From Bacillota bacterium (lineage in GTDB: Bacteria; Bacillota; JAAYKD01): a stretch of 64,000 bases of DNA. The stretch is taken from positions 2,808 to 66,807 of the forward strand of contig JAAYKD010000049.1 in assembly GCA_012522585.1 (NCBI GenBank), read 5' to 3'. Both the position numbers and the translations under genes were made by a program. The notes under the pieces are model-generated. The model saw only the letters and a program-made list of their open reading frames with translations, was not told the DNA's origin and did not search any database. Below are positions 31,656 through 51,181 of this stretch, one piece after another (positions within the stretch are counted from its first letter, which is position 1; every line of letters begins with the position of its first letter).

Positions 31656-31665
31656 ATTTATCCTC

Positions 31666-33120: not shown

Positions 33121-33123
33121 AGA

Positions 33124-34252: not shown

Positions 34253-35758
34253 TTAATCTCTCTTATTAAAACGAGGATAATTATGACGAGGGGCATCTTT
34301 ATCTGCAGGATCGATAATATATTTGCCATTGGCTTCATTATAGGATAAAACCCTTCCGTCAACAGGGGCCAGCCATTCTTCATAGACCAAGCCTCCCAAG
34401 GAATACTTAAAAGCTATAGTTTCACCTTTTTTGACCAGTTCATCGGGCCAGCGCAGGAGCACCGAGAGAGATCTTCCATCAACCACACTTAGTTTCAAGA
34501 TATGGGTGTTCTCCTCTTCCATCTCTCTGAGCCAATCTCCAGACGGATTGACTATATGATCATAAGAGCGTTTGAGCAAGGGGATTTCTCTTGAATATAA
34601 TAATTGATTTACTCCAGCCGCTTTGGCCAAGAGCAAAGGATAGATGATGGCCAGAATATAGAAAAACAAAACCAAAAGGATATTGATTAGAGAGAGCTGC
34701 AGAAACTTGTCCCAGGACAAGCTGGAGCTGGTCAAAGTGCCAAAAAGCAAAGCTGAACCCAGAAGACCAACAGCCAAACCAAAAACACCTGCAGCTCCGG
34801 CTTCGGCCAGAAAAAGCCCTAAGGCTTGATTGTTTCTGATTCCCAAAGTTTTGAAAATAGCCAATTCTTGTTTGCGCTCCAGGAAAGCCAAGAGGTTGAG
34901 GGTTAAAACTGCCACAGCCATAAAGATAAAGACCAGAAAAATCACCCAATTACCCGGACTTTGAATCACTCTGTTCAGTTCTTGAAAGCGTAAGAGGGGT
35001 GTTTCTTTTAAAATGAATTCTGCTCCGGGATAGAGCCGGGCCAGGGTGTTGTTAAAAAAGGTAAAATCCCTTAAATTATCAAAGCCACTGACTTGCAAAA
35101 ACTGACGATTGAGGTTTTTTTGCCCGCTTATTTTCTGAGCTGCTCCTAAACTGATTTGAGCTTGATCCAAATCGTAATGCTCTAAACCGATGGCGCTGAC
35201 AGTCAGGTTCAAACTTTCCTTAATACCCAGATCGTTTTTATAGAGAGCCACAAACTCATAGCCCAAGGCTAAATCGTATTGCTCGGCTAAGTTTTTAGGC
35301 AGATAAATTTCATCATCCTTTTCAGGCCAGCTACCCATGATCTTTCCTTGACGTAAAAATATGCTTTCCTCGGACACTCCCAAGACCTCAAACTCGCTCA
35401 AAGGAGTCTGAAGCTTCAAGGCTAAAGCGCTGTCACTGGCACTAACAGTCACAGGAATACTGGCACTGCGGCCCCGACTATACCCGGAAATATTGGCAGC
35501 ATAGGAAGCCAAGACGGGAAAATCCGTCAGGGGCCTTTGTCTTCCGGTCATTTGGATTTGCACATCATAGGGAATATTCAAAGGTCGAATCAAATCTGTT
35601 TTTCCTAGCCCTTGACTCTCCATCATACTGCCGTAGAGCAAAGCAACACTGACGCTGCCCGCTACCAAAGTTGCCATGAGCAGAAATCGCCAGCGCCAGC
35701 GCTTGATATTTCTGATTATTAAGCCACCAAGTGATAATGTGTCGAACCTCTTAATCAA
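34253..35758 (-). CDS. FtsX-like ABC permease (type B', paralog of 29419..30957) with the same C-terminal barrel-sandwich-like domain
   Basis: Same topology. N-terminal 'RNIKRWRWRF' matches 'KNIWRWRWRL'. The C-terminus reads 'KKGETIAFKYSLGGLVYEEWLAPVDGRVLSY'. Confidence 0.7.
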   Translation of the reverse strand: MIKRFDTLSLGGLIIRNIKRWRWRFLLMATLVAGSVSVALLYGSMMESQGLGKTDLIRPLNIPYDVQIQMTGRQRPLTDFPVLASYAANISGYSRGRSASIPVTVSASDSALALKLQTPLSEFEVLGVSEESIFLRQGKIMGSWPEKDDEIYLPKNLAEQYDLALGYEFVALYKNDLGIKESLNLTVSAIGLEHYDLDQAQISLGAAQKISGQKNLNRQFLQVSGFDNLRDFTFFNNTLARLYPGAEFILKETPLLRFQELNRVIQSPGNWVIFLVFIFMAVAVLTLNLLAFLERKQELAIFKTLGIRNNQALGLFLAEAGAAGVFGLAVGLLGSALLFGTLTSSSLSWDKFLQLSLINILLVLFFYILAIIYPLLLAKAAGVNQLLYSREIPLLKRSYDHIVNPSGDWLREMEEENTHILKLSVVDGRSLSVLLRWPDELVKKGETIAFKYSLGGLVYEEWLAPVDGRVLSYNEANGKYIIDPADKDAPRHNYPRFNKRD

Positions 35759-37283
35759 GTCTGAGCACCTCCATCACCGGTAATTTGGCATATTTTCGGG
35801 CTGGCATCCAACCAAAGAGCAGAGCTGCCGCGAGAGAAACCGTCAGGACGGTCAGGAAATCTCTAAAAAACAGGAGCAGCAGATAAAACAGACCCATGGG
35901 ATTGGTCAGCTGATTGAGCACTGCCTGAATTCTGATAAAGAGAAAGCCGAAGGAAGCACCCAAAGCTGTAATCAAAGCGGCCTCAGCCAAAATCATCAAA
36001 ATTATTTCCTTTTCTCTGGCTCCGATCGCTTTCAAAATAGCAATTTCATCCTTGCGTTCGGAAACTAATATTAAAATATTGGCAGCCACTAACAAACCTG
36101 CATTGATCATGACTAAAAGGGTTATGGGTTTGCGTAAATCAGCCTGGATTACTGTTTGTTGAACTAAGGAGCTGCGCTCCTGTAACATGGCCCTGGCTCC
36201 GGCTGGAATCTTGGGCTCCAAGCTGAGATTGTCGTGGATTTGTTTTTGATATTCGGGCAAGCCATGAAAGCTGAACTGGGGAAATTCTCTTTGTAAATCG
36301 TAAACTATATCCTGGAGATAACTCAAATCCTTGACTTCTAATAAAACTTCAGCCGGCTTAAAATCAGCATAGGGGCTTAAAGATTGCCAAATCTCCAACC
36401 AAGTCTCTTGAGGCAAATAGAATTCATTAAAATAGACGTAAATCTCCTCGGTCACCCAGCCGTCTATGCCCACTTCGTAATCGACAGTCCGACTGACCAC
36501 ACTCAAATGGCCGATGATTTCCACTTCAATTTCTTCAGCATCAGTAAAATCAACATTCCACTTGTGCCCTAGATCATTGATTTTTGGTAATTTTATTCGC
36601 ACCTTTTGACCTACAGCGGGGGTTTTAGCCAGGCCCTGTAAATTCATGTTTTCAGAAATCACAGCCACATATTTACCCTGATCTTCAGGGGAGAACCAAC
36701 GACCTTGAACTATCGAACTCTCCAGGGAGTAACGGTCCTCTTCCTGACAAGCCTTGGCTTGCAGACCAATTGCAGTCAAAACGTCGGGGCCTTGAGTGGA
36801 ACCATCTTCCCCTTGCACCAACAAATGAGGAGGCAAAGGTGTCTTCAAAGCGTCTAAATCAACCTGCTGAGCCATTTCAGCCGGCAGCCTATATAAGGGC
36901 TTGGCTGCAACAACAAAAGGCTGCTCAGCCAGTTTTTCTAAATCTGTTAAATCAAACTCCCTGAGAGCTTGGCTGGGCTTTAAAAAGCCTGTTTGGGCTA
37001 ATTGGGGCTGAAGATAATTGAGGCTGGCAAAAGGGCTCACTGCCCCTTGTTCGAATTCCCATTCTTCCTGCTGAGAAGAAAAATCAGCCGTTGTTTTCAT
37101 CGCCTGAACCAGTATTTCCCCACCTAACATAGAACTCAGCGGTTGACCGGCATGTTGGGCATAGCCTTTGCTCAAGCTGACGGTAAAGGTAAAGAACGAG
37201 GCGGCTAAAGCCATCGCTAAAATAGCTAAAATGCTGCGTTGCAGATTTCTCCAGGCATTTTGAAAACCGAGTCTTATAAACAT
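35751..37283 (-). CDS. FtsX-like ABC permease (type A', paralog of 31666..33120)
   Basis: N-terminus 'MFIRLGFQNAWRNLQRS'. Its stop and the next gene's start overlap by 8 nt. Confidence 0.7.
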   Translation of the reverse strand: MFIRLGFQNAWRNLQRSILAILAMALAASFFTFTVSLSKGYAQHAGQPLSSMLGGEILVQAMKTTADFSSQQEEWEFEQGAVSPFASLNYLQPQLAQTGFLKPSQALREFDLTDLEKLAEQPFVVAAKPLYRLPAEMAQQVDLDALKTPLPPHLLVQGEDGSTQGPDVLTAIGLQAKACQEEDRYSLESSIVQGRWFSPEDQGKYVAVISENMNLQGLAKTPAVGQKVRIKLPKINDLGHKWNVDFTDAEEIEVEIIGHLSVVSRTVDYEVGIDGWVTEEIYVYFNEFYLPQETWLEIWQSLSPYADFKPAEVLLEVKDLSYLQDIVYDLQREFPQFSFHGLPEYQKQIHDNLSLEPKIPAGARAMLQERSSLVQQTVIQADLRKPITLLVMINAGLLVAANILILVSERKDEIAILKAIGAREKEIILMILAEAALITALGASFGFLFIRIQAVLNQLTNPMGLFYLLLLFFRDFLTVLTVSLAAALLFGWMPARKYAKLPVMEVLRLD

Positions 37284-37379: not shown

Positions 37380-37431
37380 AACAATTAAATATAAATAACA
37401 AGAGGAAAAGAAAAAATCTTTTCCTCTTGTT
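37380..37431. terminator. Bidirectional rho-independent terminator at the 3' end of the lysine-fermentation operon
   Basis: aacaagaggaaaag-aaaaaatc-ttttcctcttgtt, flanked by A/T runs. Confidence 0.8.
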
Positions 37432-37448
37432 ATGAGAGTATTTGCTTT

Positions 37449-38114
37449 TTAAGATTGGAGAGGCGGACCAAAATCCTTCAAATCATGGCTGACCTGGAAT
37501 TCCGCTTCCGTCTTTTCTCTGATTTCGTCAACTGTAACTCCCTTGCGTTTTTCAATTAAGAGCAATCCGCCTTTAGTGATATCGAAAACGGCAAGTTCGG
37601 TCACAATTTTATGAACCTTTTTGTAAGCGGTTAAAGGCAACTTACAAGTTTTCAGGATTTTTTTAGCGTCCCCTCGAGCCGTATGAGTCGTTACAACGAT
37701 GACCTTTTTAGCTCCGGCGACTAAATCCATAGCGCCTCCCATGCCGGGCACCATTTTTCCCGGAATGATATGGCTGGCCAAGGAACCTTCTTGGTCTATT
37801 TCCAGAGCACCTAAAATAGTCAGATCAAGATGCCCGCCTCTGATGATGGCAAAAGACAAGGCGCTGTCGAAGAAGCTGGCATAGTCTTTAACTGTGACCA
37901 TGGCTGCTCCGGCATTGACGATGTCCGGATTTTGCTCTTCCGGGGAGGCCATTTTATCCATGCCCATAATACCGTTTTCCGATTGAAAGACTGCATGCAC
38001 ATCTTCGGGAATAAAATTGGCGACCATGGTGGGGATGCCGATTCCTAGATTGACTACATCACCATCTTTAATTTCTAAGGCTGCCCTTCTGGCAATGACT
38101 TCTCTCGCGTCCAT
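37449..38114 (-). CDS. ctfB: 3-oxoacid (butyrate-acetoacetate) CoA-transferase subunit B
   Basis: 221 aa, CoA-transferase family I beta subunit. Adjacent to subunit A. Confidence 0.85.
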   Translation of the reverse strand: MDAREVIARRAALEIKDGDVVNLGIGIPTMVANFIPEDVHAVFQSENGIMGMDKMASPEEQNPDIVNAGAAMVTVKDYASFFDSALSFAIIRGGHLDLTILGALEIDQEGSLASHIIPGKMVPGMGGAMDLVAGAKKVIVVTTHTARGDAKKILKTCKLPLTAYKKVHKIVTELAVFDITKGGLLLIEKRKGVTVDEIREKTEAEFQVSHDLKDFGPPLQS

Positions 38115-38116
38115 AA

Positions 38117-38770
38117 TCAGTCTCCTTTCACGATATAATCGACAAAGATACCGGGTGTCGCTACATCTTCCGCTTTGATTTCTCCAATATTGACGTAACT
38201 ATCAGCAGTAGCTAAAACTAAATCTGCAGCCATAGCCATTAGAGGATTGAAATTTCTGGTCGTTCCGTGATAGTAAAGATTGCCAAAGGGATCGATTTTA
38301 CTGCCGTGGATCAGAGCAATATCGGCTCTTAAGGGAGTTTCTAAAAGATAATTTTGGCCATCCACCTCAATTACTCTTTTCCCTTCAGCCACGTGAGTGT
38401 TCATGCCGGTAGCTGTTAAGACACCACCTAGACCGGAACCGCCGCAACGAATTTGCTCGGCTAAGGTGCCTTGAGGCACTAACTCCACTTCCAATTCACC
38501 GGCCCCCATCTGACGACCGGTTTCCGGATTGGTACCGATATGGGAAACTATGACTTTTTTAGCTTTTTGATCAGCGATCAAGCGGGAAATACCTATTTCC
38601 GGCAAGGCTGTGTCGTTGGCTATGATGGTGTAATCTTTTACACCCGAAGCGAGAATTGCATCGATTAAAAGTTCCGGTGTACCATTACCTAAAAAGCCAC
38701 CAATCATGATGGTCATGCCATCACAGAAATGTCTTTGCGCCTCTTCAAGAGAAATTATCTTGTTTATCAT
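38117..38770 (-). CDS. ctfA: 3-oxoacid (butyrate-acetoacetate) CoA-transferase subunit A
   Basis: 217 aa with N-terminus 'MINKIISLEEA…GMTIMIGGF'. Confidence 0.85.
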   Translation of the reverse strand: MINKIISLEEAQRHFCDGMTIMIGGFLGNGTPELLIDAILASGVKDYTIIANDTALPEIGISRLIADQKAKKVIVSHIGTNPETGRQMGAGELEVELVPQGTLAEQIRCGGSGLGGVLTATGMNTHVAEGKRVIEVDGQNYLLETPLRADIALIHGSKIDPFGNLYYHGTTRNFNPLMAMAADLVLATADSYVNIGEIKAEDVATPGIFVDYIVKGD

Positions 38771-38788
38771 TTCATCTCCCCCTCATGA

Positions 38789-39631
38789 TCAGCTATATTG
38801 ATAAAAGCCCTCGTTGGATTTTCGACCCAGTTTTCCAGCCCGCACCATTTTCTTCAAGAGCAGATGAGGACGATATTTAGGATCGAGAGTTTCATCGTGC
38901 AGCACATTTAAAATATCTAAAACTATATCCAGACCGATAAAATCTGCCAGAGCTAAGGGTCCCATAGGATGATTAGCTCCCAATTTCATGGCTGTATCTA
39001 TGTCCTCGGGAGTGGCAACTCCTTCGGCTAAGACTGCCACCGCTTCGTTGATCATGGGAATCAGCAAACGATTGACCACAAAGCCGGGTGCTTCTTCAAC
39101 CTGCACCGATGTTTTCCCCAGAGCTTCAACTATCTTTTGACATTGAGCCAGGGTTTCATCGGAGGTACGCTCCCCTTTGATCAGTTCGACTAATTTCATC
39201 ACCGGTGCCGGGTTGAAAAAGTGCATCCCGATAAAAGCAGTGGGGTCAGGTGAGTGAGCAGCCAATTCGGTTATGGATAGACTGGATGTGTTGCTGGCCC
39301 AGATAGGTTGACCCAAGTTCAGTTCTTTTAATTCTTGGAAGAGCTTTTTCTTGATCTCCGCTCTTTCCGCTACAGCCTCGATGACCAAATCAACTTGACC
39401 CGGCAGCTCCCTTAAATCTTCTAAGAGGTTGAGGTTGTTCAAAATAAGATCTTTATCAGCAACAGTCATCCGCTCTCTGGATACTTGACGTTCTAAGATT
39501 TTCTCAATAGCCACTTTAGCCTTGATTGTAACTTCATTGTTGACATCGTAAAGATAAGTTGGGCCGATACCTGCAAAGCATTGGGCTATACCACTGCCCA
39601 TGGTGCCGGCTCCGATGACCAAAACACGCAT
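38789..39631 (-). CDS. hbd: 3-hydroxybutyryl-CoA dehydrogenase
   Basis: 'MRVLVIGAGTMGSGIA' Rossmann N-terminus. GGAGGGG sits 6 nt before the ATG at 39631; the longer ORF-track entry would overlap crt. Confidence 0.9.
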   Translation of the reverse strand: MRVLVIGAGTMGSGIAQCFAGIGPTYLYDVNNEVTIKAKVAIEKILERQVSRERMTVADKDLILNNLNLLEDLRELPGQVDLVIEAVAERAEIKKKLFQELKELNLGQPIWASNTSSLSITELAAHSPDPTAFIGMHFFNPAPVMKLVELIKGERTSDETLAQCQKIVEALGKTSVQVEEAPGFVVNRLLIPMINEAVAVLAEGVATPEDIDTAMKLGANHPMGPLALADFIGLDIVLDILNVLHDETLDPKYRPHLLLKKMVRAGKLGRKSNEGFYQYS

Positions 39632-39647
39632 ATTAGCCCCTCCTCGT

Positions 39648-40421
39648 TTATTTTGCATTCTGTTTGTCCAAAAAGGATTGCATTCTTTCCTTCTGGTCAG
39701 GATGAGCAAAGCAAGCTTTAAAATGTTCGGCTTCCTGCAAGAAATCAGCAGCCGATGCGTCGGCATGAGCATAGGCAAAGATATTGGTCAGTTTATCAAT
39801 GGCGACTTGGCTGTTGTTGAGGATGCGTTTCAAAGTATCGTCTAACATTTCTTCCAATTCCTCAGGCTGAGCTAAGAGCTCAACTAAACCAATGCGATAA
39901 GCCTCTTCGCCACCGACTGTTTTTCCTGTGTACATCATATATTTAGCTCTGCCTTCACCGATTAAACGGCCTAAACGAAAGACTCCGCCAAAACCTGGGA
40001 TGATGCCTAAGCCTGTTTCCGGTAAAGCAAAACGGGCATTAGGAGTAGCAATCCGAATATCACAGGCTATAGCCAATTCCATACCGCCCCCTAGAGCATA
40101 ACCGTGGACCACAGCTATGGTCGGGATAGGCAGTTGCTCCAATTGAGCAAAGACTCGATTGCCAAACATGGAAAAATCAAAAGCTTGTTCAGGGGTATAA
40201 TCGACCATTTCAGAAATATCCGCTCCGGCAACAAAAGCTCTGTTGCCTGAACCTCTGATCACTAGGCAGCGATAGTCGGGATGCTCTCCCACTTCTCTGA
40301 TCGCTGTGCTGAGTTCTGAAAGCACTTCGGTGTTCAAAGCATTTAAAGCTTGGGGACGAGTAATCGTCAAGGTTATAACATTGTTTTCTACTGAGGTTTT
40401 AATATACTTCATTTTAAACAC
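39648..40421 (-). CDS. crt: Short-chain enoyl-CoA hydratase (crotonase)
   Basis: 257 aa, crotonase fold (…[15 protein letters not shown]…). Confidence 0.85.
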
Positions 40422-41607
40422 ACCTTTCGTCTCTTTTAACGATCAGAGCTTCACCCATGCCACCGCCGATACAGAGGGTGGCCAAGCCGATTTTAGCATC
40501 TCTTTTTTCCATTTCGTGTAAGAGTGTGACTAAAATTCTAGTGCCGGAGGCTCCGATAGGATGACCTAGAGCAATAGCTCCTCCGTTAACATTGACTATT
40601 TCAGGATTAAATCCCAATTCTTTGTTGACTGCCAAGGATTGGGCTGCAAAAGCTTCGTTGGCTTCAATTAAATCTATATCTTCCAAATTCAATTTTGCTT
40701 TAGCCAAAGCTTGTTTGACCGAAGGAACAGGACCTATTCCCATGATGGAAGGATCGACGCCAACGGAACCGGAGGCTAGGATAACCGCCATGGGCTGCAA
40801 ATTGTTTTCGACCAAAAAGGATTCGCTACAGACGATCACTGCCGCTGCTCCATCATTGATACCGGAAGCATTACCGGCGGTGACGCTGCCGTCTCTTTTA
40901 AAGGCAGGACGTAATCTGGCCAAACCTTCGATGGTGCTACCGGCTCTGGGATGTTCATCCTGATTGAAAATAGTGACATTTTTTCTCCTGTCGACCAGGG
41001 ATACATCGACAATTTCAGCATCGAAACGCCCACTGTTTTGAGCTGCTTCTGTTTTTAACTGAGAATTTAAGGCAAATTCATCTTGCTCTTCTCTGCTCAA
41101 ATTATATTGCTCAACTAAATTTTCTGCTGTGATGCCCATATGATATTGATTGAAGACGTCGGTCAAGCCGTCATAGACCATCAAATCCACGGCTTCTCGA
41201 TTGCCCATTCTGGCACCGTAGCGCAAATCTTTGAGAACATAAGGAGCTTGGTTCATGTTTTCCATGCCCCCAGCAACCACACACTCAGCTTCTCCTGCTA
41301 AAATACTGCGACGAGCATATTCAACTGCATTGAGGCCGGAACCACAGACTTTGTTTAAAGTCATAGCCGGACGCTCGATGGGAATACCGGCAGCAATAGC
41401 CGCTTGTCTGGCTGGGTTTTGCCCATTAGCTGCCTGCAAAACCTGACCCATGACTATTTCATCCACTTTTTCCGGGGCTACACCGGCTCTGTTTAAGGCT
41501 TCTTTGATGACAATAGCACCTAAATCCTTGGCTGCTGTATCCTTGAGGCTACCGCCCAAGGCTCCAATAGCTGTCCTGCATGCTCCCAAAAGATAGACTT
41601 TTTCCAT
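40414..41607 (-). CDS. thl: Acetyl-CoA C-acetyltransferase (thiolase II)
   Basis: 397 aa with thiolase N- and C-terminal signatures (…NKVCGSGL…, …CIGGGMGEA…). Confidence 0.9.
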
Positions 41608-41636
41608 TTTCTTTTCCCCTTCCTCATATTTAAATC

Positions 41637-42386
41637 TTAAAAATTGCTCTCTTTTCTCCTGATCAATTCTTTGACCATAAAGGTTGCCACATCGTCGGCA
41701 TATTTACCGCTGCCAAACCCGGCATCGTAACCCAACTCTTTAGCCAACTCATGGGTAATGCGAGCTCCTCCACAAATGAAGACCATTTTATCTCGCAAAC
41801 CTTCAGCTTCGGCCATTTCGATTAATTCGGTTAAATTATGTATATGTATATCCTTTTGAGTGACCGTTTGAGAAACCAAAATAACATCGGCATTTTCTTG
41901 AACCGCTTTTTGCAAGAGAGTTTCGTTTAAAACCTGACTGCCTAAATTATGAGTGATCAACATGTCGTAGCGTTCCAAACCAAAACGGCCATTGAAGCCC
42001 TTGCGATTCATGATAGCATCGATGCCTACAGTGTGAGCATCTGTGCCTGTCGAAGCTCCGATGACGGTGAGCTTTCGGCCCAATTCTCTTTTGATCAGCT
42101 CGTCGGTTTCTTCAATGGTCAAAGCTTTTTGCTCGTTTTCCAGCACGACAATTGTATCTAAGTCGATGGCAGCTTTGAAAGAACCATAAGCAACATAGAA
42201 TGTAAAGCCTGGGCTCAGACTCTGTTCTTGAGCTATGACAATATCCTCTAAACCCAGCTTCTCCATGATTTGACTGGCAGCAGCTTGAGCTTTCGCTCCT
42301 GCATCCAGAGGCAGAGTAAAACTGATTTGAATTTTACCGTCATTGAGAGTATCTCCATAGGGTTTGATAAAATTTTTATCCTGCAT
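41637..42386 (-). CDS. kamE: Lysine 5,6-aminomutase beta subunit (B12-binding)
   Basis: 249 aa with the B12-binding DxHxxG motif 'TDAHTVG'. Adjacent to kamD. Confidence 0.85.
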
Positions 42387-42405
42387 TTTTCACACCTCTT
42401 TTTCC

Positions 42406-43950
42406 TTAAGACCAGATTTGGCTAAAAGGATTTTCATAGCGCTCATCTTTTTTAGCAACCCCGTCTAATCCTTTGCCTCCCTGGGAAGAACGAGAGATAT
42501 CAGCGAAGACTCCCTTTTCCAAAGCATGAAAGAGTTTGTTTTGATCGATCTCTTCCAGCAATTCCAGGGCCTTTTCTAAAACCAGCTGGGCTCTCTTTTC
42601 AATCTTGCCTCCCGATTTTATTTCCAATTCTTCGGCCAATCCTGCCATGGAAGTAAAGACCATCAGGGCATTTTCTATACTGAGAGCACGATCGGACATG
42701 AAGGGTGTATGAATTGCTTCGGTCAACATGCCTAAGAGGTGGATGTTCTGTCCAGTCAAATATGAAGCGATGTTGAACATGGTGTTTTGGCTCTGACCTT
42801 TAAAAATATTCCCGGTCATGAATTTTGTCGGGGGCATATATTTTAAAGGAGCTTGGGGAAAGAGGCTGCGGGACAGAAGAGCGTGAGCCAATTCCAAGAC
42901 AAATCCACCCTGAACATTTGGGTCGATTTCAAAAGCATGGCCTAAACCCATCTGCTCCGAGGGCAAACCGGCAGCTAAAGCCAATTGTTCATTTAAAATT
43001 TGAGAGGCAATGACGGTATGGGCTTCCTCCACGGCATCGGCAGTGGTCAGATAATTATCTTCGCCGGTGTTGATGATAATACCGGCAACTGCGTTGATTT
43101 GCCTGGAGAAATGCTGGTCGATTAAAGTCCGCTGCATATTGATGTCCCTAAAAAGTATACCATAGAGTGCGTCATTGAGCATCATGTCCAGACGCTCCAA
43201 AGCCCCCATGGCTGCAATTTCAGGCATGCATAAGCCGGAACAATAATTGGTCAGACGGATATAGCGGCCTAACTCCTCTCCCACTTGATCCAGGGCTTGC
43301 CGCATCAGACGAAAATTCTCTTGGGTGGCATAGGTGCCGCCAAAGCCTTCTGTGGTAGCACCATAGGGAACATAGTCTAAAAGACTCTGTCCGGTGGTGC
43401 GAATGACGGCAATGATATCAGCTCCCTGACGGGCCGCTGCCACACTCTGGGTAATATCCTCATAGATATTGCCGGTAGCCACAATACAATAGATCAAAGG
43501 CCTGTCTTTTTTAGGTTCAGCTGCAATTTTCTCTTCCCGTTTTGCTCTTTGTTCAGCGATTTTTTTCAAGCTTTGATTAATATAAGGAGCCAAAACATCA
43601 GAAGCTGTAACTCCCGGGGGAAGAGCAAAGCTGCCCAGCTGAAGCTGGCCTTGATCCACCGCTTCGGCTATTTCCTGAGGGCTCATTTTAGTCTCAAGAT
43701 GAGCTGCTGCAATAAAATAGGCGGCCCCTATGGATAAAAGTCCCCACTCCTTTAAATGTTCAACCAGCACATTGGCATAAGGAGCATAGACTTGATTGAC
43801 CCCGTCGATGCCTAAAAGGCGACAGATGGTCCGTTCAACTGCAACAGTTGTGTGTCCTTGGACAAAAGCCAAAACATCAGAGGCTATACTGGCCCCATGG
43901 GCTTTGGCTTGGGCTACCAGATTTTCATCCAGTTTGATTTGATCGATCAT
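42406..43950 (-). CDS. kamD: Lysine 5,6-aminomutase alpha subunit (PLP-binding TIM barrel)
   Basis: 514 aa. Its start overlaps the kamA stop (ATGA). Confidence 0.85.
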   Translation of the reverse strand: MIDQIKLDENLVAQAKAHGASIASDVLAFVQGHTTVAVERTICRLLGIDGVNQVYAPYANVLVEHLKEWGLLSIGAAYFIAAAHLETKMSPQEIAEAVDQGQLQLGSFALPPGVTASDVLAPYINQSLKKIAEQRAKREEKIAAEPKKDRPLIYCIVATGNIYEDITQSVAAARQGADIIAVIRTTGQSLLDYVPYGATTEGFGGTYATQENFRLMRQALDQVGEELGRYIRLTNYCSGLCMPEIAAMGALERLDMMLNDALYGILFRDINMQRTLIDQHFSRQINAVAGIIINTGEDNYLTTADAVEEAHTVIASQILNEQLALAAGLPSEQMGLGHAFEIDPNVQGGFVLELAHALLSRSLFPQAPLKYMPPTKFMTGNIFKGQSQNTMFNIASYLTGQNIHLLGMLTEAIHTPFMSDRALSIENALMVFTSMAGLAEELEIKSGGKIEKRAQLVLEKALELLEEIDQNKLFHALEKGVFADISRSSQGGKGLDGVAKKDERYENPFSQIWS

Positions 43951-45209
43951 TTATCCAATCTCCGGTTTCTATCATGACGTTTTAAATCCTGAGGTTCTAG
44001 AGATAAGCCTTTGCCTTGGAGCAGAGCCGAAACACCAATTTCCATCTCTTCTCCTTCTTGACGGCAATCCTCACATTCACATTCGAAGACATAATCGCGA
44101 GGCTGGGTGTAAGCGGAGATAACCCCTTCAAAGTTCCTCAAAACGATTCTTTCCGGGCTCTGACTGATCAGATAGTTGGGCATGACCGGTATTTTACCGC
44201 CGCCTCCGGGTGCATCAACGACGAAGGTGGGTACGGCAAAGCCGGAAGTATGGCCTCTTAAGGCCTCGATTATTTCAATACCTTTGCTGACCGGAGTTCT
44301 AAAGTGCTCTAAGCCTTGAGAGAGGTCACATTGGTAAATATAATAGGGTCGTACTCTGATGTCGACTAAATCCTGGACCAGCTGTTTCATCACATGAGTG
44401 CAATCATTGATGCCCGCTAAGAGAACGCTTTGATTTCCCACAGGAATACCAGCGTCTGCTAAAAGTTCGCAGGCTTTGGTGGCTTCCGGAGTAACCTCGG
44501 CCGGATGGTTGAAGTGGGTATTGAGCCAGATAGGATGATACTTTTTCAACATAGCAGTCAACTCAGGAGTGATTCTCTGAGGACAGACCACCGGGGTGCG
44601 GCTGCCTATGCGAATAATTTTGACGTGGGGAATTTCTCGTAAAGCTTTGATAATCTCTTCTAGGCGATTATCCGAGAGGAGTAAGGGGTCTCCACCTGAT
44701 AAGAGGACATCGCGAATTTCCGGATGGGCTGCAATATATTCAATGGCTTTGGCAATTCTGTCCTTGGCCATGGGTTGATCCGACTGACCGGCAAAGCGTC
44801 TGCGGGTGCAATGACGACAGTACATGGAGCATTGATCGGTGACTAAAAGCAAGACCCTGTCGGGATAGCGATGAGTCAGTCCGAAAACAGGGGCATCCTC
44901 ATCTTCACTGAGAGGATCGAGTAAATCTGCAGGAGATTGGATCAATTCCATTAGTGAAGGAACTGCTTGCCTGCGAACCGGGCATTTCGGGTTATTCTCA
45001 TCGATTAAAGAAAGATAGTAAGGGGTGATAGCCATGCGCAGATGGCCTAAACACTGTTTTATTCCTTCTTCCTCATCCTCGGTTAAATTTAAGTACTCTT
45101 TCAACTGTTCCACTGTCTCGATGCGATTGCGCACCTGCCAGTGCCAATCCTGCCAATCTTCATCTTTAACTGAAGCAAAATATTTATCCTTCAAAGACAA
45201 AGCAAACAC
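43947..45209 (-). CDS. kamA: L-lysine 2,3-aminomutase (radical SAM)
   Basis: 420 aa with the radical-SAM 'CSMYCRHCTRRR' motif and a C-terminal Zn-Cys cluster. Confidence 0.9.
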   Translation of the reverse strand: MFALSLKDKYFASVKDEDWQDWHWQVRNRIETVEQLKEYLNLTEDEEEGIKQCLGHLRMAITPYYLSLIDENNPKCPVRRQAVPSLMELIQSPADLLDPLSEDEDAPVFGLTHRYPDRVLLLVTDQCSMYCRHCTRRRFAGQSDQPMAKDRIAKAIEYIAAHPEIRDVLLSGGDPLLLSDNRLEEIIKALREIPHVKIIRIGSRTPVVCPQRITPELTAMLKKYHPIWLNTHFNHPAEVTPEATKACELLADAGIPVGNQSVLLAGINDCTHVMKQLVQDLVDIRVRPYYIYQCDLSQGLEHFRTPVSKGIEIIEALRGHTSGFAVPTFVVDAPGGGGKIPVMPNYLISQSPERIVLRNFEGVISAYTQPRDYVFECECEDCRQEGEEMEIGVSALLQGKGLSLEPQDLKRHDRNRRLDK

Positions 45210-45221
45210 TCCTTTCGATAG

Positions 45222-46256
45222 CTAGACATAGCGTTGGTTAAAATATTCTTTGAGTTCTTCATTTTCTCTCAATTCCCACAGGGTGATTTCCGCATGACCT
45301 TTGGTATAACCGTTGCCGATGATCATGGTCACGTCCTTACCCACACCTTCAGCCCCCAAAGCTGCTTTGGTAAAGCTGGTCGCCATGGAAAAGAAATAGA
45401 CTATACCCTCCTGGCGCACAGGTAAAATACAGGACATCTCAGCATCAGGAGCATTGACACAGCTGATTGCGATATCCACTTCCTGGTTGTCATTGGCTTC
45501 CAGTGTTTTTTCCAAAACTTCCAGAGCATTGGTCGCATCTGCTACGATGATCTGATGGGCTAAGCCTAAAGCTCTGATCTTCTCCACATCTTTTTCGCTG
45601 CGATCGAGAGCGATTACATTGCCTGTAGGCCCGACCCTTTTCTTAGCTTCATAGAGACAGAGCAAGCCTGATTTGCCTCCGGCTCCCAAGATCAAGACGG
45701 AATCACCGGGCTTGACCAATTTAGCCGTTTGAGCCGGAGCTCCTGCCACATCTAGAGCAGCCAAGCTCAGGTTTTCGCTCAAATCTGTAGGCAATTTAGC
45801 ATAGATTCCACTGGCAAATAAAACTGCTTGTCCTTTAATATCCACCCGGTCAATCTCCGGATGAATGGCTATGATTTCTTCAATGTAGAGAGGAGTCAAG
45901 GATAAGGAGACCAAGGAAGCTATTTTATCCCCGATTTTTAAATCCTTGAGTTTTAAAGCGGAACCAAAGGCCGCCACAGTGCCGATGAACATACCGCCTG
46001 AACCTGTGACGGGATTTTGCATTTTACCTCTGTCAGCGACAATCTTCAGAATCTGTTCTTTGATCTTTTCCGGATCCCCTTGGGCGGCCTGCTTCAATTG
46101 AGCAAAGGAAGCAGAGTCAATATTCAATGAATGGACATCCACTAAAATCTCATTATCATAGAGTTTAGAAAAATCATTGTCCAATTTTTGCGCCCCTTGG
46201 GGCAGTTTGCCTTGGGGCTCTAGTACCCTGTGGCTGCCGTATTTGTTGCCTTGCAT
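45222..46256 (-). CDS. kdd: L-erythro-3,5-diaminohexanoate dehydrogenase
   Basis: 344 aa NAD(P)-dependent dehydrogenase in the canonical position between kce and kamA. Confidence 0.8.
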   Translation of the reverse strand: MQGNKYGSHRVLEPQGKLPQGAQKLDNDFSKLYDNEILVDVHSLNIDSASFAQLKQAAQGDPEKIKEQILKIVADRGKMQNPVTGSGGMFIGTVAAFGSALKLKDLKIGDKIASLVSLSLTPLYIEEIIAIHPEIDRVDIKGQAVLFASGIYAKLPTDLSENLSLAALDVAGAPAQTAKLVKPGDSVLILGAGGKSGLLCLYEAKKRVGPTGNVIALDRSEKDVEKIRALGLAHQIIVADATNALEVLEKTLEANDNQEVDIAISCVNAPDAEMSCILPVRQEGIVYFFSMATSFTKAALGAEGVGKDVTMIIGNGYTKGHAEITLWELRENEELKEYFNQRYV

Positions 46257-46277
46257 AAGAATCTTCCTTTCAAGGAT

Positions 46278-47105
46278 TTATTTAGGATTTAAGCCTAAAA
46301 TCTCTCGAGCTTGTTGGGGAGTGGCGATTTCTCGGCCTAATTCCTTGGCTATCCGCACCACTTTTTCCACCAATTCACCGTTGCTTTGAGCTTTTAAGCC
46401 TCGGGCTAAATAGACATTGTCTTCAAAGCCTACTCGAACATGGCCACCTAAGATCATCGCCATGGTGGCAATGGGAAAAGCCGCTCGGCCTATGCCGGTA
46501 GCTGTATAAGTGGAATCGGCAGGTAAGCTCTCAACCATGAAAAGAAGATCGCGGGGCTCAGCACTGATGCCGCCATTGACCCCTAAAACTAAATTGAAAT
46601 GCATGGGACCGGGGATCTGGCCTCTGGCATTCAGCCTTTTGGCTAAATCAATCATGCCCTTGTCAAAAACCTCTACTTCCGGCTTGACATTGCGCTCCAT
46701 CATCTGACGGGCAAACTCAATAATCATATTCTCAGTATTGACGAAAATTTCATCTCCGCCGAAATTTAGGGTCCCACAATCTAAAGTAGCCATCTCAGGA
46801 TTTAAGCGCAAAGGCTGCAGACGCTCTTCAGCACTCATGCCGGTGGCTCCACCAGTGGAAGGTTGAACGATCAACTCAGGAGGACAAAGCCGGTAAATTT
46901 CTTCCATACAAGCTTTAAATCGATCATAGCTCTGAGTCGGGGTGCCATCGTCTTCTCTGACATGGAGATGAATGATGGAAGCTCCTGCCCGATAAGCGCT
47001 TAAAGCCTCTCGGCCAATTTCTTCAACGGTATAAGGGACAGCCGGGTTATGTTCTTTGGTCACTTCCGCCCCACAAATGGACGCTGTGATGATTAAAGGT
47101 TCCAT
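46278..47105 (-). CDS. kce: 3-keto-5-aminohexanoate cleavage enzyme (BKACE/DUF849)
   Basis: 275 aa with N-terminus 'PLIITASICGAEVTKEHNPAVPYTVEEI'. Confidence 0.85.
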   Translation of the reverse strand: MEPLIITASICGAEVTKEHNPAVPYTVEEIGREALSAYRAGASIIHLHVREDDGTPTQSYDRFKACMEEIYRLCPPELIVQPSTGGATGMSAEERLQPLRLNPEMATLDCGTLNFGGDEIFVNTENMIIEFARQMMERNVKPEVEVFDKGMIDLAKRLNARGQIPGPMHFNLVLGVNGGISAEPRDLLFMVESLPADSTYTATGIGRAAFPIATMAMILGGHVRVGFEDNVYLARGLKAQSNGELVEKVVRIAKELGREIATPQQAREILGLNPK

Positions 47106-47121
47106 TCTTTCACCTCAATTA

Positions 47122-47505
47122 TTATTTGTTTCTTTGCCTGTCTTTGGGCACTATACAGGTACCCACAGCTTTACAGACTACTATCGGTTCAGCTAAAACT
47201 TCACAGGCAGAATCTCTAATATCAGGCCTGGGTTGAATCACTTTGCGAGCTTCAAATTCCATCTTTCTGGATGTGTTTCCGGCAGATGTGATTCTTCCGA
47301 CGATTTCAAGAAAATCTCCGGCATAGACTGGAGCTAAAAAATCTATCGACTCGTAAGCTCTAAACAAGCCTTCGTCTCCATCGTGACGAATCAGCAATTC
47401 TGTGGCTACATCTCCAAAAAGCTGCAGCAGCTTGGCTCCGTCCACCATCTGGCCTCCGTAATGAGCATCGGCCGCACTCATCCGCAATCTCAGCATAACT
47501 TCCAT
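47122..47505 (-). CDS. kal: 3-aminobutyryl-CoA ammonia-lyase (hot-dog fold)
   Basis: About 128 aa. AAAGGGGA sits 7 nt before the ATG at 47505; the ORF-track start at 47523 is a TTG inside the RBS. First gene after the riboswitch. Confidence 0.8.
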
Positions 47506-47520: not shown

Positions 47521-47574
47521 CAAATAAAAAAATAAGAGCCCTTTAAAAATCAGTTAAACTGTTTTTAAAGCGCT
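47521..47574 (-). terminator. Intrinsic terminator (expression platform of the lysine riboswitch)
   Basis: On the minus strand: GAGCGCTTTAAAAA-cagtttaactga-TTTTTAAAGGGCTC followed by TTATTTTTTTATTT. The 5' arm overlaps the riboswitch's 3' P1 strand. Confidence 0.65.
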
Positions 47575-47727
47575 CCATGATTTACCTTCATCATGACAGA
47601 AAGACCGCACTGAGCAATCTTCCCAAAGCTAAAGAAGACACGTTTCTTTGCTTTTCGGCAGCTGCACATTCCATCGATTCATCAAGAACGTTCTCCCTCC
47701 CCGATGTACCTTGACAACTGCGCCTCT
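47569..47727 (-). promoter_or_regulatory. Lysine riboswitch (L-box) aptamer in the leader of the kal-kce-kdd-kamADE… operon
   Basis: On the minus strand the element has 5' AGAGGCGC, …GTGCAGCTGCCGAAAAG…, …CTGTCATGATGAAGG… and a 3' GGAGCGCT. These are the L-box hallmark blocks, in the canonical order and at the expected length of about 160 nt. Confidence 0.7.
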
Positions 47728-47750
47728 AATCAGATATTAAGTTCAAGAAT

Positions 47751-47779
47751 AATATAACAATCTTTCATGCTAATGTCAA
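47751..47779 (-). promoter_or_regulatory. Near-consensus sigma-A promoter driving the riboswitch and lysine operon
   Basis: On the minus strand: TTGACA, a 17-nt spacer, then TGT-TATATT (extended -10). The -35 box overlaps the stop codon of the upstream gene. Confidence 0.6.
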
Positions 47780-49242
47780 TGTTTTTTTCGTTTTTTAGCC
47801 ATTTCTTTGGCAAAATTCTCCATTATCTCCTGATCCAAGCCTAAAAGACCAGCAACCAAGCGGGCTTCTTTGGGTACTGTTTTTTCTGAAGCGGAAATTT
47901 CCCAACTATAGTTCATCTTTTCCTGCAAGAAAAGGGTGGGATCTTTGCCTGAATTCAATTGCTTCCTCAAAGCCTTTAAATCCAATTGACTCAAACCTAT
48001 GATCTGCCAATGAGCCTCAGCCTCTTGAGCAATTTCATCATAATGGCTGGCAATAATAGTCAGGCCCTTTTGTTTTTTTCTTTTCTTTAAAATCGCTTTG
48101 AGCAGGGCTGCCCCTTCTGTCGGATTGGTGCTGCGAGCAAATTCATCCAGGATTAAAAAAGCTTTGCTCTTTTGATTTTGGGCAATGAAGTTTTGCAGAG
48201 CTATGATCTCAGCAGCAAAACTGCTCAAGCCCTTCTGTAAGGATTGTTTGATCTCATCGATCATGGTTAAAGAATCGAAAAGAGTCAGACAAGCTCTTTC
48301 AGCAAAAACGAAAAATCCTGTCTGAAAGAGATATTGGTTGAGCATCAGGCTCTTTAAAGCTATGCTTTTACCGCTCATATTGGCTCCGGTCAAAACGCTT
48401 GTGCCCAAGGGCAGTTTTAAATCCAGACTCTGATAGGCCTTGTGCTGGGATTGCAAATTCCACTGGAGCAGAGGATGCCTGAGCTTCATATAATCGAGCT
48501 TGTCTGTCTGGCTTATTTGAGGGCTGACCATTTTAAATTGAATGGCCATATGAGCCTTGGCCTGCAAAAAATCCAGACGCCCCAAGAGCTGACAGAGCTC
48601 TTCAATCTCCTCAGTCCAAACTCTCAGCTGCAGTGAGAGCTCTTGGTAAATACTCTCCTCTTCCTTCGTCTCTTCTTGGTTTTTCCTTTTCAGCTCTGCT
48701 TTAATCTGGTCATTCTCTTCATCTTGAAAGAGAGATTTTAACAATTGAGCCTTGTCTTGACGAATCAGAGCTAATTCTCGGGAAAAATTCCCATCTAAAA
48801 AAAAGGAAGGCAAGCGATTGCTTTGAGGATCGAGGATTTTTAAGACCTGCTCAATTAAAATAACCCTTACTTCAGAGCCTTGCAGCCGGCTCAATTCGAT
48901 TAAAATTTCCAAATCCTTCTCCAGAGCTATGAAGAATCGTTTTATTTTCAAAAAGCCTTCAGCATAGAGTGAATGACCGTTCTTCAGACTTTCAAGCTCC
49001 GATTTTAAATCAGGCAAGCTTTGCAAAAAAGAATTGAGAGGGGCTTTTAAATCTGGGCGCTGAACAAAATAATTGTAAAAGGATTGAACTTTCTCCAGCT
49101 CCTGAACCAGCTCTGCTTCCTCAGCGGAGGAATAAAACTTGAGCCGGAAAGCCCGCTGACCATAGACGGAGCCTAAAGGCAATTGAGCCAAAACCTCATC
49201 CAACTCCTCCGACCACTGCCAATTTATACCGGGATATTGCAA
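47776..49242 (-). CDS. MutS2-like protein lacking the Smr domain (MutS core/clamp region plus domain V ABC ATPase)
   Basis: 'LGRLDFLQAKAHMAIQF…KLRHPLLQ' matches MutS domain IV/connector. Walker A 'GANMSGKS' and Walker B 'LILDEFARST' are present. There are no mismatch-binding domains. Confidence 0.65.
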   Translation of the reverse strand: MQYPGINWQWSEELDEVLAQLPLGSVYGQRAFRLKFYSSAEEAELVQELEKVQSFYNYFVQRPDLKAPLNSFLQSLPDLKSELESLKNGHSLYAEGFLKIKRFFIALEKDLEILIELSRLQGSEVRVILIEQVLKILDPQSNRLPSFFLDGNFSRELALIRQDKAQLLKSLFQDEENDQIKAELKRKNQEETKEEESIYQELSLQLRVWTEEIEELCQLLGRLDFLQAKAHMAIQFKMVSPQISQTDKLDYMKLRHPLLQWNLQSQHKAYQSLDLKLPLGTSVLTGANMSGKSIALKSLMLNQYLFQTGFFVFAERACLTLFDSLTMIDEIKQSLQKGLSSFAAEIIALQNFIAQNQKSKAFLILDEFARSTNPTEGAALLKAILKKRKKQKGLTIIASHYDEIAQEAEAHWQIIGLSQLDLKALRKQLNSGKDPTLFLQEKMNYSWEISASEKTVPKEARLVAGLLGLDQEIMENFAKEMAKKRKKH

Positions 49243-50291
49243 GCCAAACCCTCCTTAATATCAAAAACCGCACATTTTGCCTGAAAGCACAATTCTTTAA
49301 AAAATTGCCTTTCCGGCGAAATCAAACCATATTGGTCCTGTTGGTTGACGAAAATACCGCCAACAGTAAAATTGTTGAAAGCGTAAACTCTCAGTCCTCT
49401 CTCCTGCCAAAAGGTCCACTGCTTTGAGTCCAACATGATCTTGCTTCCGTTGGGGATGATCAGAGAAAATCCTTGATCGAACTTTGTATTTTGATTGAGC
49501 TCAGTCAAAAAAGCATTGGTAATGGCTCCCTGAAAATAAAAGCCATCGCAGAGCTGCTCATGGAAAAGATTCCAAGGCAGATCATTTTGATAGATTTGCT
49601 CCAAGCTAAATTCTCTGATTATTTCTTGGCCTTTGACAAAGGCAGCATGAGCCGCTGAATCAAGATCGATTCTTAAAGGCAGGTTGGCCAACAAGTCATA
49701 GAGAAAAAGAGTTTCAGCCAGGGCATCCTCTTCCCTTTGAAAACAAAAAGGAGCGGTGGCCAGGAGCAGGGTCTGCTCTTTTTGCCAATCCATGACTCGC
49801 CGATTGATACTGCCATCGATTATCACCCTCTCGGCTCCATGCGCTTGCAGAGCCTGGATAACCCTTTCGGTCTGACGACGAGAAGATGGCCCCGACAACT
49901 GAATATAGCCGGCACTGCGGGCCCGAATCAAGAGATAGGAGCCTAGGGCACCCCCAGGCCCCAGAATATCAACAAGCTCCTTGGTTACTTCCGATTGAGA
50001 CCAAAGAGCTGTTTGACTGATAAATAGAGTTCCTGCCGTGACAAGGATTCGAGGTTTGGCTTTTGTGCCGGCCCGATCCAGGCTTTCTCCATCCAAACCG
50101 ATGGACAACAAACCTAAGACCAGATCTTTTTTTTCTTCCCTAGCCGCTTGCAAAAAAGCATTGAGCACGGTTGTCTTGCCGGCATTTTTACAAAAACCGA
50201 TTAAGGAGAGAACTTGATTTTTATCCAGTATTTCCATGAGCTGGCTATTTTTCAAACCTATGGGCACAGGATCATCCTCCTCGAGAATCAA
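49224..50291 (-). CDS. P-loop NTPase of unknown family
   Basis: 'GFCKNAGKTT' Walker A near the N-terminus. 355 aa. Its stop and the MutS-like start overlap by 19 nt. Confidence 0.45.
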   Translation of the reverse strand: MILEEDDPVPIGLKNSQLMEILDKNQVLSLIGFCKNAGKTTVLNAFLQAAREEKKDLVLGLLSIGLDGESLDRAGTKAKPRILVTAGTLFISQTALWSQSEVTKELVDILGPGGALGSYLLIRARSAGYIQLSGPSSRRQTERVIQALQAHGAERVIIDGSINRRVMDWQKEQTLLLATAPFCFQREEDALAETLFLYDLLANLPLRIDLDSAAHAAFVKGQEIIREFSLEQIYQNDLPWNLFHEQLCDGFYFQGAITNAFLTELNQNTKFDQGFSLIIPNGSKIMLDSKQWTFWQERGLRVYAFNNFTVGGIFVNQQDQYGLISPERQFFKELCFQAKCAVFDIKEGLACNIPV

Positions 50292-50306: not shown

Positions 50307-50660
50307 TTAGAGTAAAATAAAGGTAACGCCATGATTGTGTCTCTCTAAATCCCTGTCTTGGCGCAATTCAGGTGCTGCCTGCAAAATTTCCCTGGCTGTC
50401 TGATCAAAAATGGAAAAATCTTCTCCACTAACAAAAGCTTTAATTTTATCCTGCTTCTGCAAGGATTTTAAATAACTGCGCAGACCAATCCGCAAATTGC
50501 CCCCTTTACCACTGGAGCCATAGCCGTGAATGATTTTTAAAACCGAAAGCTTTTGCCTTCGGCAGTTTTTCATTTCTTGATCCAACAATTGTCTGCCTAG
50601 CTGAACCGTAGGGAAATAGCTTTCTAAATTAAAAACTGTGCTGTTCGTCTTTTTCTTCAT
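50307..50660 (-). CDS. Stand-alone Smr-domain protein
   Basis: 'LKIIHGYGSSGKGGNLRIGL' is the Smr-domain core. Its ATG at 50660 forms an ATGA overlap with the lepB stop; the ORF-track start at 50690 lies inside lepB. Confidence 0.6.
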   Translation of the reverse strand: MKKKTNSTVFNLESYFPTVQLGRQLLDQEMKNCRRQKLSVLKIIHGYGSSGKGGNLRIGLRSYLKSLQKQDKIKAFVSGEDFSIFDQTAREILQAAPELRQDRDLERHNHGVTFILL

Positions 50661-51181
50661 TTTAAAGCCCTCAGCTTGTTCAAAGGCCACATGATGGCGA
50701 CAGCCCGACCAATGACTTTTTTCTCACTGACAAAGGGAGTCGTCACCCAAAATCTGGCATCTTCAGAATTATTGCGGTTGTCCCCCATGAAAAAGAGCAT
50801 GCCCTCAGGCACTTCAAACTTCTCCTGATAGCTAAAGGTCTGCCCCATTGTATAGCCTTCTTCAAGCAATTGCCCATTCAAAAAGACTTGGCCTTCTTTG
50901 AACTCGATGGTGTCTCCACCTTTGGCAATCAGCCTTTTTATATAGGGGAAAGTACCGGGCTTGGAGTCCGGGCAGGGAAAGACCAGAATGTCACCGTATT
51001 CAGGTTTGCGGAAAAACCGGGTGAATTTTTCTACTACCACCCTTTCTCCCGGCATGATGGTAGGAGTCATGGAAGCTGAGGGAACCAAGGGAAAGACCAC
51101 TACAAAAAAATATATGAAGGCCACAATGGCGGCTGAAATCAAAAACTCAGATAGAAATTCCTTTATCCATTTTAAATCCAA
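50657..51181 (-). CDS. lepB: Signal peptidase I
   Basis: 'SASMTPTIMPGERVVVEKF' with the catalytic Ser, and 'GDNRNNSEDARFW' box E. 174 aa. Confidence 0.85.
   Translation of the reverse strand: MDLKWIKEFLSEFLISAAIVAFIYFFVVVFPLVPSASMTPTIMPGERVVVEKFTRFFRKPEYGDILVFPCPDSKPGTFPYIKRLIAKGGDTIEFKEGQVFLNGQLLEEGYTMGQTFSYQEKFEVPEGMLFFMGDNRNNSEDARFWVTTPFVSEKKVIGRAVAIMWPLNKLRALK

Follow-up and report, generated by a model that had tools for sequence, protein, structure and literature searches.

A predicted lysine-inducible fermentation operon without butyryl-CoA dehydrogenase genes in an uncultured Bacillota bacterium

Organization of the operon

The DNA analyzed here is a stretch of 64,000 nucleotides (nt; the window) on contig JAAYKD010000049.1 of a Bacillota bacterium (assembly GCA_012522585.1). 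Between positions 37449 and 47505 its minus strand carries eleven open reading frames (ORFs), in the order of transcription kal, kce, kdd, kamA, kamD, kamE, thl, crt, hbd, ctfA and ctfB, which are predicted to form an operon for the fermentation of lysine. An initial annotation of this DNA had given the same eleven names and a common direction of transcription, and both were borne out. Profile identities were judged against the curated cut-offs of NCBIfam, and the structures used for comparison are solved, named enzymes. The eleven ORFs are listed below, with profile scores in bits against the cut-off of the model.

47122..47505, minus strand: kal; NF052388, 194.7 bits against 160; 4HBT hot-dog fold, nearest solved relative 4MTU
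46278..47105, minus strand: kce; NF052387, 431 against 382; full-length match to 2Y7D (286 bits); HLH and FED Zn-ligand motifs conserved
45222..46256, minus strand: kdd, L-erythro-3,5-diaminohexanoate dehydrogenase; NF052381, 266.6 against 200; full-length match to 7DL3 (355 bits)
43947..45209, minus strand: kamA, lysine 2,3-aminomutase (radical S-adenosylmethionine enzyme); TIGR03820, 623 against 525; full-length match to 2A5H (674 bits)
42406..43950, minus strand: kamD, alpha subunit of lysine 5,6-aminomutase; NF052384, 837 against 600; 1XRS_A (720 bits)
41637..42386, minus strand: kamE, beta subunit of lysine 5,6-aminomutase; NF052385, 367.5 against 280; matches to 9Q1A and 1XRS_B
40414..41607, minus strand: thl, acetyl-coenzyme A (CoA) C-acetyltransferase (acetoacetyl-CoA thiolase); TIGR01930, 474.6 against 240.6; Thiolase_N and Thiolase_C domains
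39648..40412, minus strand: crt, short-chain enoyl-CoA hydratase (crotonase), assigned at family level; top match PRK05809, 269.9, under the cut-off of 394; ECH_1, 193 bits
38789..39631, minus strand: hbd, 3-hydroxybutyryl-CoA dehydrogenase; top match PRK05808, 381, under the cut-off of 408; 3HCDH_N and 3HCDH domains
38117..38770, minus strand: ctfA/atoD, CoA-transferase subunit A; TIGR02429, 221 against 128.5; PRK09920, 304.9 against 315
37449..38114, minus strand: ctfB/atoA, CoA-transferase subunit B; TIGR02428, 289.7 against 243.6

From kal to ctfB the successive intergenic distances are 16, 21, 12, -4, 19, 29, 1, 16, 18 and 2 nt, the negative value being an ATGA overlap. The gaps thus measure 1-29 nt, with a single 4-nt overlap, where the earlier description had 3 to 30-nt gaps or ATGA overlaps. 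A purine-rich stretch resembling a Shine-Dalgarno sequence precedes the start of every gene in the operon. The start of hbd was corrected to the ATG at 39631, and for crt the ATG at 40412 is more likely to be the start than the GTG at 40421.

Identification of the lysine fermentation genes

By sequence comparison, every component of the operon is covered by a curated family model. The six lysine-specific proteins (Kal, Kce, Kdd, KamA, KamD and KamE) all scored above the cut-offs of NCBIfam equivalog models. For five of them the alignment with a solved, named enzyme extends over the full length; the exception was Kal, for which the sole solved comparison is the paralogous beta-alanyl-CoA ammonia lyase 4MTU. 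KamD and KamE aligned with 1XRS, 8T0V and 9Q1A. KamA conserves the motifs CSMYCRHC (the CxxxCxxC cluster) and GGGGK, and KamE carries DAHTVG (DxHxxG). The gene identities given in the initial annotation are upheld.

A biosynthetic function of KamA (formation of the osmolytes beta-lysine or N-epsilon-acetyl-beta-lysine, or modification of elongation factor P) was considered and rejected because kamDE, kdd, kce and kal share its unit and because TIGR03820 outscores the models for EpmB and for glutamate or arginine aminomutases.

The assignments of the thiolase, the crotonase, the 3-hydroxybutyryl-CoA dehydrogenase and both CoA-transferase subunits are clear at the level of the family. The presence of a CoA-transferase inside the operon, which had also been noted initially, is upheld by the scores for TIGR02429 and TIGR02428, both above their cut-offs, and the CtfAB proteins are 51-71% identical to the in-cluster transferases of other lysine loci.

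Promoter, lysine riboswitch and terminator

The operon is flanked by the following regulatory features.

47751..47779, minus strand: sigma-70-type promoter, TTGACA-17-TATATT with a TG extension; 11/12 matches, the top site in the 14.5 kb scanned
47560..47734, minus strand: lysine riboswitch aptamer; RF00168, 64.8 bits against a gathering threshold of 30, E = 1.2e-14, full model length
47522..47576, minus strand: expression platform, an intrinsic terminator hairpin (47576-47535) with a U-tract; fold of -22.2 kcal/mol, z = -4.7
37385..37433, minus strand: intrinsic terminator at the end of the operon; perfect 17-bp stem (hairpin 37433-37395), 5-nt loop, T-rich tail

The initial annotation had the riboswitch and promoter bounding the operon upstream, which the RF00168 match and the TTGACA-17-TATATT site support. 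At the other end it had placed a strong bidirectional terminator (37380..37431). The 17-bp terminator is present, but it is not meaningfully bidirectional, since the next gene has the same orientation as the operon and the plus strand lacks a T-rich tail. These boundaries and the close packing of the genes support the view that the eleven genes make up one riboswitch-to-terminator unit, which would be transcribed as a single RNA.

The -35 hexamer of the promoter abuts the stop codon of kamC, the gene preceding the operon. For comparison with other genomes, 80 loci (cited below by L number) were retrieved from species-representative genomes by alignment of KamD, and 14 proteins of the window together with Bcd, EtfB and EtfA were mapped on them. 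TTGACT-17-TATATT sites occur at the same position as the promoter in L001-L003.

The 5' arm of the leader terminator is made up of the conserved 3' core of the aptamer, GGAGCGCU, and the 3' strand of its P1 helix, UUUAAAAACAG. As used by hairpin 47576-47535, this arm is GGAGCGCUUUAAAAACAG; it pairs over about 19 bp with the 3' arm, AAAGGGCUC, and the hairpin is followed by the tract UUAUUUUUUUAUUU, 17 nt ahead of the kal start codon. In the leader fold, closure of the aptamer excludes formation of the terminator and vice versa, and there is no separate anti-terminator. Because the aptamer's own 3' end doubles as the 5' arm of the terminator, we infer from this structure a terminator switch of the ON type.

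A covariance model built from six catabolic-operon leaders was run over the 80 loci. It detected the riboswitch in 29 of them, all in Clostridia and Fusobacteria and all on the strand of the operon. The riboswitch lies upstream of kal in 23 loci and of kce in 6, at a distance of 32-191 nt, and 17 of the 29 have it directly after kamB-kamC. No match to this model was obtained in the Bacteroidetes loci among the 80. In a simple automated test, 22 of 30 leaders, belonging to several families, had such a terminator with the aptamer core in it; its arms covary, differing in sequence while staying complementary. That the switch is of the OFF type and a remnant of a biosynthetic gene was considered and rejected, as the aptamer 3' end forms the terminator 5' arm across lineages.

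The regulatory design is already known, its prediction dating back to 2003. Barrick & Breaker 2007 (PMC2258182) credit Rodionov 2003 with ON lysine riboswitches in which parts of a terminator stem are buried in the ligand-bound aptamer, and for C. sticklandii, F. nucleatum and Thermoanaerobacter riboswitches have been reported upstream of kal-kce (PMC5584792). The leader described here shares the design of the ON-type switches and their lysine catabolic targets, and adds an example from a new lineage. Its compact arrangement of promoter, ON riboswitch and terminator could act as a lysine-inducible genetic part.

A scan in Rfam gathering mode missed the riboswitch in L004 and L007. In L004 (Intestinimonas) the custom model finds it at 5213-5401, directly upstream of kal, with 82 bits. 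Catabolic ON-type lysine riboswitches, for example those of Oscillospiraceae loci, may be under-called by the default Rfam filters.

Steps of butyrate and acetate formation absent from the operon

Lysine fermentation via 3,5-diaminohexanoate comprises ten reactions (Perret 2011, PMC3149608). Reaction 6, the reduction of crotonyl-CoA by butyryl-CoA dehydrogenase (PMC3149608), corresponds to the Bcd-EtfAB step, the central one at which all butyrate pathways merge (Vital 2014, PMC3994512). The operon covers reactions 1-5, 7 and 8 and is without reactions 6 (Bcd-EtfAB), 9 (Pta) and 10 (Ack). Butyrate formation would therefore require genes located elsewhere.

A Pfam search of all window ORFs of at least 300 amino acids detected no acyl-CoA dehydrogenase, ETF, PTA_PTB or acetate kinase domain in the 64 kb. 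When the window was searched by tblastn with Bcd, EtfB and EtfA of L043, the best E value was 0.18, and the genes called in the few kb past both window ends include no bcd or etf. In other organisms, too, pta and ack are usually not linked (PMC4697335).

The initial annotation had stated that this one transcription unit encodes every step by which lysine is converted to butyrate, acetate and ammonia. In favor of such a self-contained unit, all lysine-specific steps, the CoA-transferase and the thiolase do lie within one riboswitch-to-terminator unit. The claim fails, however, on reactions 6, 9 and 10, which are absent from the operon and the 64-kb window, and none of the genes called just past its ends is bcd or etf. 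Moreover, KamB and KamC, the reactivase of the B12-dependent aminomutase, are encoded outside the riboswitch-controlled unit, just upstream on the same strand, and other genomes do place bcd-etfBA in the cluster. It is therefore very improbable that the unit by itself converts lysine to butyrate, acetate and ammonia.

Among the 80 loci, 36 contain all six core lysine genes; 16 of these have the core only, and 20 have additional butyrate-pathway genes, which include bcd-etfBA in eight. Counting all 80, bcd and/or etf is found near the lysine genes in 12 and the full bcd-etfB-etfA trio in 10. In Alistipes (L033) the order is ctfA-kal-kce-kdd-kamA-kamB-kamC-kamD-kamE-ctfB-crt-hbd-bcd-etfB-etfA, and in Ancylomarina (L059 and L060) thl is added to such a bcd-etf cluster. 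L055 and L043 are further examples of clusters that are more complete than the present one and contain bcd-etfBA. In L002 and L003 the ORF following ctfB encodes a protein of 372-374 amino acids; it was considered as a candidate bcd and rejected, being an aldo-keto reductase with a 4Fe-4S domain.

In guts and in digesters fed with protein, lysine fermentation is a source of ammonia, acetate and butyrate, and correct pathway calls therefore matter for the prediction of products. Before an operon of this kind is scored as butyrogenic, the presence of Bcd-EtfAB should be checked.

Proposed pathway and its products

With a probability of roughly 85%, we interpret the locus as a lysine-inducible catabolic operon of an uncultured anaerobic-digester Bacillota bacterium, which would be able to take lysine to acetyl-CoA and acetate and would not be sufficient for butyrate formation.

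In the proposed mechanism, the strong promoter drives a leader with the lysine riboswitch. Without lysine the leader terminator would form, whereas binding of lysine would cause the aptamer to sequester the 5' arm, so that RNA polymerase continues into the eleven genes. By homology, KamA and KamDE would then shift the amino groups, converting lysine to beta-lysine and further to 3,5-diaminohexanoate, which Kdd would oxidize and deaminate with formation of NADH and NH3. The Kdd product is predicted to be cleaved by Kce with acetyl-CoA into acetoacetate plus 3-aminobutyryl-CoA, and Kal to free the second NH3 from the latter, giving crotonyl-CoA. The net reaction of this core would be lysine plus acetyl-CoA to acetoacetate, crotonyl-CoA, two NH3 and one NADH.

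CtfAB, an enzyme whose class is assigned by homology, would activate acetoacetate to acetoacetyl-CoA with an acyl-CoA as the presumed donor, and Thl would split acetoacetyl-CoA into two acetyl-CoA. In Cloacimonas, AtoAD catalyzes the conversion of acetoacetate and acetyl-CoA to acetoacetyl-CoA and acetate (PMC3149608). The canonical lysine route does not include Crt or Hbd. They would link crotonyl-CoA with acetoacetyl-CoA, and a second NADH would be formed if the flux is oxidative. The operon alone would then suffice to convert lysine to two acetyl-CoA, acetate, two NH3 and two NADH. The KamBC reactivase would be supplied by the separate unit immediately upstream.

Several points weigh against this interpretation. 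Crt and Hbd score under the cut-offs of their best NCBIfam models, which places their substrate specificity at the level of the family. Promoter-like matches inside the operon number 37 against a shuffle expectation of 20 +/- 4.2, so that internal transcription starts are possible. The P1 helix of the aptamer is weak or irregular in the Rfam alignment, where two of its positions are non-canonical, and the absence of bcd-etf covers about 70 kb of the genome.

The operon may nevertheless serve a butyrogenic or mixed fermentation with Bcd-EtfAB encoded at a distance, for which we consider the chances about even. Crt and Hbd would then work reductively, from acetoacetyl-CoA to crotonyl-CoA, and supply Bcd-Etf with additional substrate, a form of "cross-feeding". 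Of the acetyl-CoA butyrate module, thl, hbd and crt are present (at family level) and bcd-etfAB is not in synteny. The same logic has been given for co-located operons of the lysine and acetyl-CoA pathways in Porphyromonadaceae (Vital 2014, PMC3994512). In Intestinimonas, bcd-etf is unlinked to the lysine operon and yet lysine is fermented to butyrate (PMC4697335), and the occurrence of bcd-etfBA in eight of the 36 loci with a complete core points the same way. On the other hand, the stoichiometry in PMC3149608 implies that conversion of lysine to butyrate and acetate is already redox-balanced, and the reduction of a second C4 unit would need extra reductant, which is not provided by lysine. 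Furthermore, bcd-etf was not found within roughly 30-40 kb of the operon, nor beside it in L002 and L003. If a distal Bcd-EtfAB exists, crotonyl-CoA would be partitioned between reduction to butyrate and oxidation to acetate.

A purely oxidative, butyrate-independent route was also considered, in which Crt, Hbd and Thl would yield three acetate equivalents, two NH3 and two NADH, with the electrons passed as H2 or formate to syntrophs. The enzymes encoded in the operon complete this route with no help from elsewhere, AtoAD can take acetyl-CoA as the donor (PMC3149608), and the lineage conserves a thl-crt-hbd-ctfAB module that has no bcd. The anaerobic digester habitat is in keeping with it, and a variant lysine pathway that bypasses crotonyl-CoA reduction offers a precedent (PMC3149608). 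Against it, forgoing the energy-conserving Bcd-Etf step would be costly (Perret 2011, PMC3149608), the 64-kb window showed neither a hydrogenase nor a formate dehydrogenase, and the lack of bcd-etf applies only to the 70 kb or so of the genome mentioned above. An exclusively oxidative fermentation thus appears rather unlikely. It is likewise doubtful that the operon is a self-sufficient, lysine-switched module for butyrate-independent fermentation that delivers four reducing equivalents to syntrophic partners. If true, the oxidative route would add a third variant of the pathway to the canonical and Kat ones.

The placement of thl-crt-hbd-ctfAB within the operon hints that some digester Bacillota may route lysine carbon to acetate. 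The current understanding of the pathway is not changed by this operon; the only mildly new possibility is the route that does not involve butyrate.

Comparison with other genomes

KamD of the window is identical to NLN83152.1 from a metagenome-assembled genome (MAG) of Firmicutes, and its contigs come from metagenomes of anaerobic digesters; after it, the closest KamD shares 77% identity. The exact order smr-kamB-kamC-kal-kce-kdd-kamA-kamD-kamE-thl-crt-hbd-ctfA-ctfB was found only in L002 and L003 (Bacillota MAGs) among the 80 loci, and L001 matches it up to the end of its contig. L003 is the closed relative OY762825.2.

The operon had been described initially as more complete than the split arrangements in Fusobacterium and Clostridium sticklandii. 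It is indeed more consolidated than that of Intestinimonas AF211, where six genes form one operon and atoDA-thl and bcd-etf lie elsewhere (Bui 2015, PMC4697335). The wider claim does not stand, since public clusters include bcd-etfBA and the co-location of lysine and acetyl-CoA-pathway genes in one operon is known from Porphyromonadaceae (Vital 2014, PMC3994512).

Fusobacterium nucleatum and Clostridium (Acetoanaerobium) sticklandii (Kreimeyer 2007, cited in PMC3149608) use the same KamA, KamDE, Kdd, Kce, Kal, AtoAD and thiolase, and have, as here, a riboswitch upstream of kal(-kce) (PMC5584792). The fusobacterial loci L015 and L057 show the order kal-kce-kdd-kamA-kamB-kamC-kamD-kamE together with the riboswitch. 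In the present operon, by contrast, kamB-kamC lies upstream of the riboswitch and not between kamA and kamD, and thl-crt-hbd-ctfAB is appended in the same unit.

The order kamB-kamC-[riboswitch]-kal-kce-kdd-kamA-kamD-kamE of Intestinimonas (L004 and L006), which also belongs to the Firmicutes, is the same as in the window. In strain AF211, however, atoDA and the thiolase form a separate cluster, whereas in the window these genes, like crt and hbd, are joined to the lysine operon. Butyrate formation from lysine is proven for AF211 (PMC4697335).

Bacteroidales clusters (Porphyromonadaceae, Alistipes and Ancylomarina; L033, L055, L059 and L060) resemble the present one in that the lysine genes, the CoA-transferase and crt-hbd or thl are co-directional. 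They contain bcd-etfB-etfA, their ctfA and ctfB are split around the lysine genes, and they gave no riboswitch match; with respect to bcd-etf and the riboswitch the operon described here is the opposite.

A functional parallel to a route without crotonyl-CoA reduction is the Kat variant of the digester organism "Candidatus Cloacimonas acidaminovorans" (PMC3149608), in which 3-aminobutyryl-CoA is converted to acetoacetyl-CoA and AtoAD uses acetyl-CoA. In that variant a beta-transaminase replaces Kal, whereas Kal is present here and a bypass would proceed via Crt and Hbd. Taken together, the comparison identifies a genuine, intact lysine fermentation operon that is a lineage-specific fusion of known modules.

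Related gene clusters were also noted outside these groups. Three loci assigned to Promethearchaeia, Hodarchaeota and an uncultured archaeon (MAGs; L016, L034 and L061) carry kce-kdd-kamA-kamB-kamD-kamE, and their KamD is about 62% identical to the bacterial protein. This suggests that Asgard-archaeal MAGs hold or have received lysine fermentation genes, contamination of the bins being the alternative. Two tandem kdd paralogues, about 60% and 56% identical to Kdd of the window, are present in the lysine clusters of the Bacteroidetes loci L038, L041 and L064.

Reactivase genes and other genes in the window

Upstream of the promoter, three ORFs precede the operon.

47776..49242, minus strand: kamC, MutS2-like ATPase of the lysine 5,6-aminomutase reactivase; NF052383, 398.8 bits (cut-off 300); PF00488 MutS_V
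49224..50291, minus strand: probable kamB, reactivase subunit of lysine 5,6-aminomutase; sole match NF052386, over the full model length, 187.6 bits, under the cut-off of 210
50307..50690, minus strand: Smr-domain ORF of 127 amino acids; PF01713, E = 2.2e-6; its link to the locus is uncertain

The kamB gene adjoins kamC, as in most related loci. MutS2 normally carries an Smr domain. KamC is MutS2-like and has no such domain; an Smr homologue occurs at the same position only in L001-L003, where the order lepB-smr-kamB-kamC is kept. From their sequences, the Smr ORF and KamC look like a split MutS2.

Further upstream, positions 53601-56626 on the minus strand hold two adjacent genes. One encodes a 624-amino-acid protein of the GlmL/MutL family (PF13941), which scores far under the NCBIfam cut-offs for GlmL and for ornithine Or-4, and the other a 373-amino-acid partner that matched no Pfam or NCBIfam family; no B12 mutase is located beside the two. 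Judged by its family, the PF13941 protein may be another mutase chaperone or reactivase.

Directly past the terminator of the operon, positions 29419-37283 on the minus strand hold three paralogous genes for FtsX/MacB-type permeases (about 500 amino acids), an ABC ATPase and a 512-amino-acid ORF that belongs to no family. These genes are not found at that position in L002 and L003, which have the aldo-keto reductase gene instead.

Elsewhere the window has many genes of peptide and amino acid catabolism, namely those for an asparaginase, an S9 peptidase, an M3 oligopeptidase, phosphoenolpyruvate carboxykinase, a pyridoxal phosphate enzyme of the D-cysteine desulfhydrase family and a threonine/serine dehydratase (3460-4458, 7588-9609, 11388-13178, 16096-17676, 25910-26890 and 33124-34104). 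This gene content fits an amino-acid-fermenting lifestyle. A further ORF of 317 amino acids (4803-5756, minus strand) fuses a DUF123 (GIY-YIG-like) domain to a nitroreductase domain.

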